A stretch of 64,000 nt of DNA from Escherichia coli (GTDB lineage Bacteria > Pseudomonadota > Gammaproteobacteria > Enterobacterales > Enterobacteriaceae). Below the pieces are notes generated by a model. The model was not told the origin of the DNA. It searched no databases and worked only from the letters and a program-made list of their open reading frames with translations. Positions 12,401 to 27,634 of this stretch are shown here, one piece after another. The translations under genes were made by a program, and so were the position numbers. Positions within the stretch are counted from its first letter, which is position 1, and every line of letters begins with the position of its first letter. The stretch lies in the NCBI RefSeq assembly GCF_030013205.1, contig NZ_CP122648.1; one strand, given 5' to 3'.

Positions 12401-13537
12401 ATGAGCCACTTAGACAACGGTTTCCGTTCACTGACACTACAACGTTTTCCGGCGACGGATGACGTTAACCCACTACAGGCGTGGGAAGCGGCGGATGAAT
12501 ATTTGCTGCAACAGTTGGACGACACAGAAATCCGCGGCCCGGTGTTGATCCTGAATGATGCCTTTGGTGCGTTAAGTTGTGCGCTGGCGGAACATAAGCC
12601 ATACAGCATTGGCGACTCATACATCAGCGAACTGGCGACGCGCGAGAATTTACGCCTCAACGGGATTGATGAGTCGAGCGTGAAGTTTCTCGACAGCACC
12701 GCCGACTACCCGCAACAGCCGGGCGTGGTACTGATCAAAGTACCGAAAACACTGGCGTTGCTGGAACAACAACTGCGTGCGCTGCGCAAAGTCGTCACGC
12801 CGGATACACGTATTATTGCCGGTGCCAAAGCCCGTGACATCCACACTTCCACGCTGGAACTGTTCGAAAAAGTGCTCGGCCCGACCACCACCACGCTGGC
12901 ATGGAAGAAGGCACGCTTAATTAACTGTACTTTCAACGAGCCGCCGCTGGCCGATGCGCCGCAGACCGTTAGCTGGAAACTGGAAGGTACTGACTGGACT
13001 ATCCACAACCATGCGAATGTCTTCTCCCGCACCGGGCTGGATATTGGCGCGCGCTTCTTTATGCAGCATCTGCCAGAGAATCTCGAAGGTGAGATTGTCG
13101 ATCTCGGTTGTGGTAATGGCGTTATTGGTCTGACGCTGCTTGATAAAAACCCGCAGGCGAAAGTGGTGTTTGTCGATGAATCGCCGATGGCGGTTGCTTC
13201 CAGCCGTTTGAACGTTGAAACCAACATGCCAGAGGCGTTGGATCGCTGCGAGTTTATGATCAACAACGCGCTCTCCGGCGTGGAGCCTTTCCGCTTTAAT
13301 GCTGTGCTCTGCAACCCGCCGTTTCATCAGCAACATGCGCTGACCGATAACGTCGCCTGGGAGATGTTCCACCACGCCCGCCGCTGTCTGAAAATCAACG
13401 GCGAGCTGTATATCGTTGCCAACCGTCACCTGGATTACTTCCATAAACTGAAGAAGATTTTCGGCAACTGCACCACCATCGCCACGAATAATAAATTTGT
13501 GGTGCTGAAAGCAGTGAAGCTGGGGCGTCGTCGGTAA
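12401..13537 (+). CDS. rlmG: 23S rRNA (guanine1835-N2)-methyltransferase RlmG
   Basis: 378-aa ORF with SAM-MTase motif [10 protein letters not shown] and NPPFH catalytic motif. Confidence 0.9.
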
Positions 13538-13550
13538 GATTGGCAGCTAC

Positions 13551-13641
13551 CTGCCAGATAAGGCGTAAACGCCTTATCTGGCATACGTTCAGCACATTAC
13601 CCCCAGGTCGGATAAGACGCGGCAAGCGTCGCATCCGGCAC
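13551..13641. repeat. REP (repetitive extragenic palindrome) pair
   Basis: CTGCCAGATAAGGCGTAAACGCCTTATCTGGCA and GTCGGATAAGACGCGGCAAGCGTCGCATCCGGCA, typical E. coli REP units, in the rlmG-fadH spacer. Confidence 0.7.
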
Positions 13642-13654
13642 TTCAATGCACGAT

Positions 13655-15700
<2,046 letters not shown>

Positions 15701-15827
15701 TTATGTGGTCGGATGAGTTCTAATTTAGCTGTCGCCGGGGAAAAGGGAAAAGGGGAGTGCGGGGTTTGTGATGGGATTCAAAAAGAATACGCCCATTGGA
15801 AATGCCAGATACGACGCTTGTCGCGTT

Positions 15828-15864
<37 letters not shown>

Positions 15865-15865
15865 G

Positions 15866-15965
<100 letters not shown>

Positions 15966-15977
15966 ACTTCGACCATT

Positions 15978-17547
<1,570 letters not shown>

Positions 17548-17573
17548 AGATAGTGCCGTGTTTGCTCACTGGC

Positions 17574-17650
<77 letters not shown>

Positions 17651-17651
17651 A

Positions 17652-27634
<9,983 letters not shown>

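Follow-up and report, generated by a model that had tools for sequence, protein, structure and literature searches.

Chromosomal toxin-antitoxin (TA) modules vary among strains of Escherichia coli. The type II higBA (ygjNM) locus of K-12 encodes HigB, a ribosome-dependent mRNA interferase, and HigA, a repressor (Christensen-Dalsgaard et al. 2010, PMC2814082), and lies between fadH and rlmG; in MG1655 the genes fadH, higA, higB and rlmG follow one another as b3081, b3082, b3083 and b3084, the order that an earlier reading of this DNA from its letters alone (the sequence-only reading) had given. The region between fadH and rlmG is already described as variable, with a complete module in K-12 and HS and an orphan higA in CFT073 and NRG857c (PMC7232551). 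REPs have in addition been found at the ends of deletions in E. coli: among 14 Cas9-induced deletions, 11 had REP borders and 7 passed through 35-bp REP repeats (PMC4872102), and F'128 is itself a product of REP-REP recombination (PMC4872102, citing Kofoid et al. 2003). The allele described here shares with the K-12 locus both the fadH/rlmG site and the REP pair that adjoins rlmG, but it lacks the whole 938-bp module. Like the orphan-higA allele of CFT073 and NRG857c, it would be a decayed state of that locus; however, in the orphan allele the loss is confined to the promoter and a 5′ portion of higB (324 bp), higA is kept and the breakpoints are inside the cassette, whereas in the present allele both genes are missing and the breakpoints fall in REP arms.

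The allele lies in a 64,000-nt window of E. coli DNA (by the window we mean the whole stretch that was analyzed), which is 100% identical here to K_EC180, the finished chromosome of a Korean swine isolate. The two genes rlmG and fadH converge on a spacer of 117 bp, against 1055 bp in MG1655, a difference of 938 bp (Table 1). The RlmG ORF matches the NF011577 profile over positions 1-378 of 378 with 888.8 bits (cutoff 468), and rlmG and fadH each keep a REP hairpin about 14-15 nt past the stop codon. The sequence-only reading had described the spacer as about 117 bp long, made of two REP units and free of ORFs, and this is borne out by the coordinates, the ORFs, the predicted fold and the REP half-sites: the spacer contains no gene, the ORFs that touch it (58, 83 and 30 aa) being mechanical and overlapping rlmG or fadH. 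Its claim that higBA is absent from between the two genes holds as well. When K-12 HigB and HigA were used as tblastn queries across the whole 64-kb window, no similarity was found (best E = 0.65), and the window has no gene for a RelE-fold HigB (PF09907) followed by one for an HTH-XRE HigA; the K-12 proteins themselves match these domains at 3.6e-22 (HigB, PF09907) and 1.5e-7 (HigA, HTH_3). A search of the spacer for promoter-like or intrinsic terminator-like sites found none, the REP hairpins being without T-tracts.

Table 1. Features of the rlmG-fadH spacer and its flanking genes, in window coordinates
Feature	Coordinates	Strand	Basis
rlmG (ygjO), 23S rRNA m2G1835 methyltransferase, intact	12401..13537	+	378-aa ORF; NF011577 match; annotated rlmG in K_EC180
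rlmG-fadH spacer: empty higBA site, one BIME (REP pair) plus 14 nt adjoining fadH	13538..13654	.	
REP1, y-type, iREP orientation; stems 13553-13565 and 13570-13582, loop TAAA, degenerate head ATAC	13553..13586	+	fold, half-site, alignments
Linker between REP heads, 16 nt, head-to-head BIME	13587..13602	.	read from sequence
REP2, opposite orientation; head CCAG (13603-13606), then palindrome 13607-13639	13603..13640	+	fold, half-site
GCGTCGCATCCGGCA, single retained direct-repeat copy; junction within it or at its end, 13640|13641	13626..13640	.	repeat search, in-silico deletion, alignment
CTTCAATGCACGAT, 14 nt from junction to fadH stop, the same as the sequence past the O157:H7 third hairpin	13641..13654	.	
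fadH, 2,4-dienoyl-CoA reductase, intact	13655..15673	-	672-aa ORF; FadH/OYE-family matches; annotated fadH in K_EC180

Folding predicts two strong hairpins in the spacer (MFE -53.6 kcal/mol; z = -5.6 relative to shuffled sequences), both of which are present in the MFE and the centroid structures. REPs were detected by the head half-site CGYCTTATCMGGCCTAC instead of a full-length consensus; the latter, taken as GCCKGATGNCGRCGY-N5-RCGYCTTATCMGGCCTAC, had no matches even in K-12, either as a fixed pattern or as a fuzzy regular expression, its arm and loop lengths being wrong for this REP type. The half-site has seven matches in the window, where 0.35 would be expected by chance, and two of the seven are in this spacer, one for each hairpin (13570-13586, plus strand, 2 mismatches; 13603-13619, minus strand, 3 mismatches). 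They lie on opposite strands, with the heads facing each other over the 16-nt linker and the pair situated between two convergent stop codons, in keeping with the definition of a BIME that we used (PMC3333891). The same linker is kept in K-12, O157 and Yu5.

Both REP1 and REP2 are stem-loop palindromes of the 30-40-nt, imperfect type, and both belong to a dispersed family that shares the REP consensus. The GTAG expected 5′ of the palindrome foot, or CTAC on an inverted copy, is present in neither. The head of REP1 (13583-13586) has ATAC where K-12 has CTAC, and the CCAG of REP2 is a degenerate GTAG. CTAC is retained in the orthologous copies of K-12, E62 and EC261, GTAG is intact in HH107, AR24.2b and E69, and the K-12 orthologue of REP1 matches the half-site with 0 mismatches; on this comparison, we read the REPs of the window as mutated copies of true REPs. 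Relative to K-12, the REP1 of the window, O157, Yu5 and DCE7 has a G>A change at 13556 paired with C>T at 13579, plus GC>AA at 13560-61, and these substitutions turn an imperfect stem into a perfect 13-bp palindrome. Removal of the stem mismatch was shown to abolish TnpA_REP binding in vitro (PMC3333891), and the BIME of the window is probably decaying and inert for TnpA_REP. Overall, it resembles the described BIME/REP elements of E. coli (Bachellier/Gilson nomenclature; Ton-Hoang et al. 2012, PMC3333891) in consisting of two inverse palindromes of 34-38 nt and a linker, placed outside genes and past convergent stop codons; unlike them, it has both GTAG/CTAC heads mutated and has lost the stem mismatch of REP1.

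The window was aligned with the corresponding regions of K-12, Yu5, E62 and DCE7, and also with that of O157:H7 Xuzhou21. The alignment with K-12 MG1655 and other E. coli, which the sequence-only reading had proposed as a check, showed that a 938-bp block is missing from the window. The arrangement REP1-linker-REP2 adjoins rlmG in K-12, Yu5, O157, E62 and DCE7, and the window differs only in that the block is absent after ...GCATCCGGCA. A REP pair had been said to stand in place of higBA; the pair is indeed present, but the same pair adjoins rlmG in the higBA carriers K-12, Yu5 and O157. To judge from these alignments, the missing block is bounded by the REPs, which did not replace it and are more than bystanders. 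In the occupied alleles, the block lies between REP2 and a third, short REP-derived hairpin beside fadH. It starts directly after the distal arm of REP2 (...GCGTCGCATCCGGCA|ATGTCTGCCC...) and ends at a short perfect hairpin just past the higA stop codon (...GCCGGATGCGT(C/T)GCATCCGGC(A/G)|CTTCAA...), 14 nt before the fadH stop codon. Within it are the promoter and the operators of higBA, both genes and the larger part of the third hairpin, which in E. coli measures 21 nt.

A direct repeat, GCGT(C/T)GCATCCGGC(A/G), stands on either side of the cassette, and its copies were placed 938 bp apart in O157 and 939 bp apart in Yu5 by an independent repeat search. In E. coli this repeat is 15 nt long with 0-1 mismatch. 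The window retains one copy, its flanks are colinear with those of the occupied alleles, and it is identical to O157 from 13641 to 13717. Deletion in silico between the two O157 repeats produces a 117-nt spacer that matches the window at 114 of 117 positions; the mismatches are at 13543, 13590 and 13618, and none is at the junction. The sequence CTTCAA(T/C/A)GCAC to the right of the junction was considered as a marker of empty alleles that would form an old, separate class. This was ruled out, as O157:H7, with a full higBA, has the right flank of the window.

The origin of the third hairpin can be followed in relatives of E. coli. E. whittamii has full REP pairs on both sides of higBA, which form a 42-nt perfect and a 34-nt, 91% direct repeat at spacings of 1004 and 992 bp. 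When 54 internal nucleotides bounded by GCG microhomology are taken out of its right-hand BIME, the E. coli third hairpin results, with 4 mismatches to Yu5 (our own count) and 7 to O157. Escherichia sp. MOD1-EC7003 has a full BIME to the right of higA, the linker of which is that of the left BIME of E. coli. From these sequences, the third hairpin of K-12 and other E. coli is best read as a collapsed BIME, in which the outer arm of the first REP has been joined to the outer arm of the second. The ancestral Escherichia layout is likely to have been rlmG-BIME-higB-higA-BIME-fadH, the one still present in E. whittamii.

Occupied and empty alleles both occur among the 5,426 complete E. coli genomes that we surveyed, a clinically biased collection and not the species, in agreement with the presence/absence polymorphism at a REP-bearing site that the sequence-only reading had proposed. 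A higA gene covered over at least 80% of its length was found in 4,372 genomes (4,377 with any match), and 1,049 have higA nowhere. For higB, coverage of at least 80% was found in 2,822, and about 1,460 have only a partial match, mostly a 78-bp 3′ remnant. An 80-bp query spanning the empty junction matched 1,008 genomes. The empty counts rest on this query and on the higA and higB gene queries; a 200-bp junction query returned 2,560 genomes and was rejected as an overcount, in which pieces had been joined over the 614-bp orphan-higA allele. The locus has at least four states: higBA may be full or absent, or higA may be left as an orphan by either of two kinds of higB deletion. About 52% of the genomes have a near-full-length higB together with higA, about 29% have higA with a truncated or missing higB, and about 19% are empty. 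The strain had been marked as non-K-12 by its lack of higBA. That it is not K-12 agrees with its flanks, which are about 95-96% identical to K-12, and with its 100% match to K_EC180, but an empty state of this frequency is no rare marker. In the main type of orphan higA, a 324-bp deletion takes the promoter and operators together with 237 bp from the start of higB (E62, 2039-2769 in L003; also Nissle 1917), and no obvious repeat was found at its breakpoints; in the rarer type, 193 bp are deleted within higB (DCE7, L004 2039-2900). Orphan higA occurs in about 1,460-1,550 complete genomes, and in this collection the antitoxin-only state is commoner than complete loss.

Empty alleles are found on several flank haplotypes: the window type, that of EC261, HH107 and AR24.2b, and those of 1604D011 and YL3. 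The EC261/HH107/AR24.2b haplotype has a K-12-like REP1 and the right flank CTTCAACGCACTTT, which was not seen among the occupied alleles sampled; this class may be old, or its site may never have been occupied. The empty allele of 1604D011 (L007 298-407) is 7 bp shorter, with a REP2 that reads GTAGGCCGAATAATATGCGTCGCATCCGGCG and a K-12-type right flank; as a simple repeat-to-repeat product it fails unless two extra substitutions are admitted, and it probably arose independently. The main junction is also lacking in about 40 genomes without higA. The allele of YL3 (L008, about 298-452) is empty too and differs from the window solely in that REP1 is duplicated in tandem over 38 bp, with AGCTACCTGCCAGATAAGGCGTAAACGCCTTATCTGGC present twice, which shows that REP copy number is still changing at this site.

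One genome per species was scanned with RlmG, and tblastn was run for four proteins. Throughout Enterobacteriaceae, rlmG and fadH are conserved as a convergent pair with a spacer that usually consists of 0-130 bp of REPs, and in most of the enterobacterial species sampled besides E. coli this spacer is short and contains REPs only. At the same site, higBA is present in E. whittamii (L014; HigB 98%, HigA 97% identity to K-12), Pseudocitrobacter faecalis (L062; 69% and 83%), Citrobacter sp. 18056 (L075; 61% and 71%) and Enterobacteriaceae bacterium RIT691 (L077; 69% and 71%). Read unaligned, the three copies from outside Escherichia appear to share their upstream leader with E. coli. Pairwise HigA/RlmG identities were 97/99, 83/88, 82/91, 72/87, 71/85 and 68/86; thus the divergence of HigA roughly tracks that of the flank, the pairs at 72/87 and 68/86 being exceptions, and this pattern fits an old, vertically inherited orthologous cassette that has been lost repeatedly. 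E. albertii is of no use for polarity, its contig ending in IS10 644 bp past rlmG.

Several other arrangements were seen in this spacer. In Pseudocitrobacter (L062 4640-4680 and 5610-5635) and RIT691 (L077 4640-4700 and 5650-5672), higBA is bracketed on both sides by another palindromic family, CCCTCTCCC...GGGAGAGGG, which mirrors the bracketing by REPs in Escherichia. MOD1-EC7003 (L012 4833-5630) has an AT-rich DUF1266 gene (PF06889, E = 1.7e-24) in the place of higB, directly upstream of an intact higA, which may represent a swap of the partner gene of the antitoxin. What is apparently the start of the same DUF1266 gene is found in E. albertii NBRC 107761 (L011 past 1632), where it is interrupted, presumably by the IS10 end, and the contig stops. 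Enterobacter sp. kpr-6 (L063 4797-6181) carries, between two spacer REPs, an AT-rich cassette of a DUF3289 (E = 1.6e-92) and a DUF943 gene (E = 1.9e-32); the stop codon of its second ORF is inside the GTAG of the right-hand REP. Tandem BIME/REP arrays occupy the spacer in three taxa (L034 4638-5094, L035 4638-5009 and L065 4638-5083), among them Citrobacter youngae with five near-identical units of about 90 bp each, and these arrays indicate that the spacer is a site of REP expansion across genera.

The allele in the window is the empty one of a polymorphic locus with several states, and we consider it likely that it arose through loss of higBA by recombination between REP repeats rather than from a site that was ancestrally empty. 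The occupied ancestor would have had a BIME on each side of higB and higA, the one on the fadH side having collapsed to the 21-nt hairpin in E. coli. The REP arms that flank the cassette would serve as direct repeats, recombination or replication slippage between them would remove exactly 938 bp, and one BIME would be left between the convergent stop codons with rlmG and fadH untouched. We infer both the direction, loss rather than gain, and the homology-driven mechanism. Partial-decay alleles point towards loss, the 1604D011 join and the separate 324-bp and 193-bp higB deletions indicating that the cassette has been eroded repeatedly. As for the mechanism, the simplest account would be that REP arms recombine by homology or slip, for which there is direct precedent in E. 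coli. In F'128 and the Cas9-induced deletions of the lac region, the breakpoints are likewise in directly repeated REPs and one hybrid REP is left (PMC4872102). However, those events cover 13-35 kb or more and come from laboratory selection, whereas the present one is a 938-bp natural allele for which the present-day E. coli repeat is only 10-15 nt and the mechanism is inferred. The window strain seems to have inherited or imported an allele that was already deleted, as nothing in it indicates a recent deletion in situ. Its flanks are mosaic, with 1 SNP in 786 bp relative to Yu5 on the rlmG side and 97% identity on the fadH side, and the empty allele has probably been moved between backgrounds by ordinary homologous recombination; such import blurs the history of the locus.

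Alternatively, the site may never have been occupied in this lineage, the empty state being ancestral in E. coli and the other strains having gained higBA at the BIME. A Campbell-type integration, in which a circular higBA-BIME fragment enters by a single crossover at the BIME, would create the same repeats that we take for substrates of the deletion, and other cassettes have clearly been inserted in this spacer (DUF3289 plus DUF943 in Enterobacter sp. kpr-6, DUF1266 in MOD1-EC7003). A site never filled would also be in keeping with the empty state of two divergent Escherichia representatives (L013 and L015) and with the EC261-type right flank, unmatched among the sampled occupied alleles. The REP-only spacers of most other species sampled and the low GC content of the cassette (44%, against 54-57% in the flanks) argue in the same direction, and they imply that the cassette was acquired at one time and that the empty state is ancestral at some depth. 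What makes this explanation unlikely for the window allele is that E. coli, E. whittamii and MOD1-EC7003 have higBA or higA at exactly this site and three other genera have diverged copies there, so that several independent insertions of the same family would be needed, and that HigA divergence roughly follows the flanks. Furthermore, the junction of the window is the exact product of a deletion between the O157 repeats, and the partial-decay alleles suggest that loss is the prevailing direction. As regards polarity, same-site copies and roughly congruent HigA divergence favor an occupied ancestor, and mostly empty genera and low GC speak against one.

A different route to loss would be excision by the REP-associated tyrosine transposase (TnpA_REP/RAYT) in place of homology-driven recombination or slippage. 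The boundaries of the block are at REP arms, and TnpA_REP cleaves iREP and linker sites and carries out strand exchange between BIMEs in vitro (PMC3333891); some REP-REP deletions also formed without RecB, for which a role of TnpA was suggested by the authors (PMC4872102). Nevertheless, we regard this route as very improbable. Cleavage needs a central C|T, as TGCC|TGAT or within CTAC, and binding needs GTAG and a stem mismatch (PMC3333891), whereas in this allele the relevant strand has TGCC|GGAT at the junction, the palindrome of REP1 is perfect and the two heads have degenerated; moreover, a simple direct-repeat deletion accounts fully for the junction. REPs are repeats and can confuse short-read assemblies, but an assembly or collapse artefact can be dismissed almost entirely, given the same junction in 1,008 complete genomes, about 1,049 genomes with no higA anywhere, and the complete identity of the window to a finished chromosome.

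A further difference from K-12 lies nearby. Between ygjK and fadH, the window has a 513-aa ORF (15978-17519, minus strand, with flanks 15674-15977 and 17520-17810), annotated as 'hypothetical protein' WP_063086268.1 in K_EC180, at a position that in K-12 holds nothing but a REP-rich spacer of 425 bp. It had no match in Pfam, NCBIfam, PADLOC or PDB sequences. By eye, three internal repeats of roughly 150 aa can be made out, each with a ...LIN(R/A)(N/D)TD... motif and a 13-letter motif, and a REP lies at the ygjK-proximal edge (about 17765-17800). Present in 251 of the 5,426 complete E. coli genomes, this ORF is rarer and less understood than the absence of higBA.

Polymorphism of the kind seen here in the absence of higBA is known, and the locus has been published as variable. 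What the present analysis adds are the REP-derived repeats that bound the module, the exact repeat-to-repeat junction, the collapsed BIME in K-12 and the allele frequencies. As about one complete genome in five is without higBA, its absence should not be used as a distinctive strain marker. To judge from its sequence, the window strain would be without the ribosome-dependent mRNA interferase HigB and the repressor HigA, and its allele can serve to illustrate how REPs may mediate the loss of an accessory module. A broader proposal, which we hold to be distinctly doubtful, is that the rlmG-fadH spacer is an ancient, REP-bracketed hotspot of cassette exchange across Enterobacteriaceae, in which REP/BIME elements or other local palindromes act as recombination substrates by which small toxin-type cassettes are gained, swapped and lost. 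Examples would be higBA itself, DUF1266-higA in MOD1-EC7003, with apparently the same gene start in E. albertii, and DUF3289 plus DUF943 in an Enterobacter; their insertion points differ relative to the REPs, which argues against a single site-specific mechanism. If this proposal were true, REP arrays would be a general and overlooked vehicle for the turnover of TA modules.
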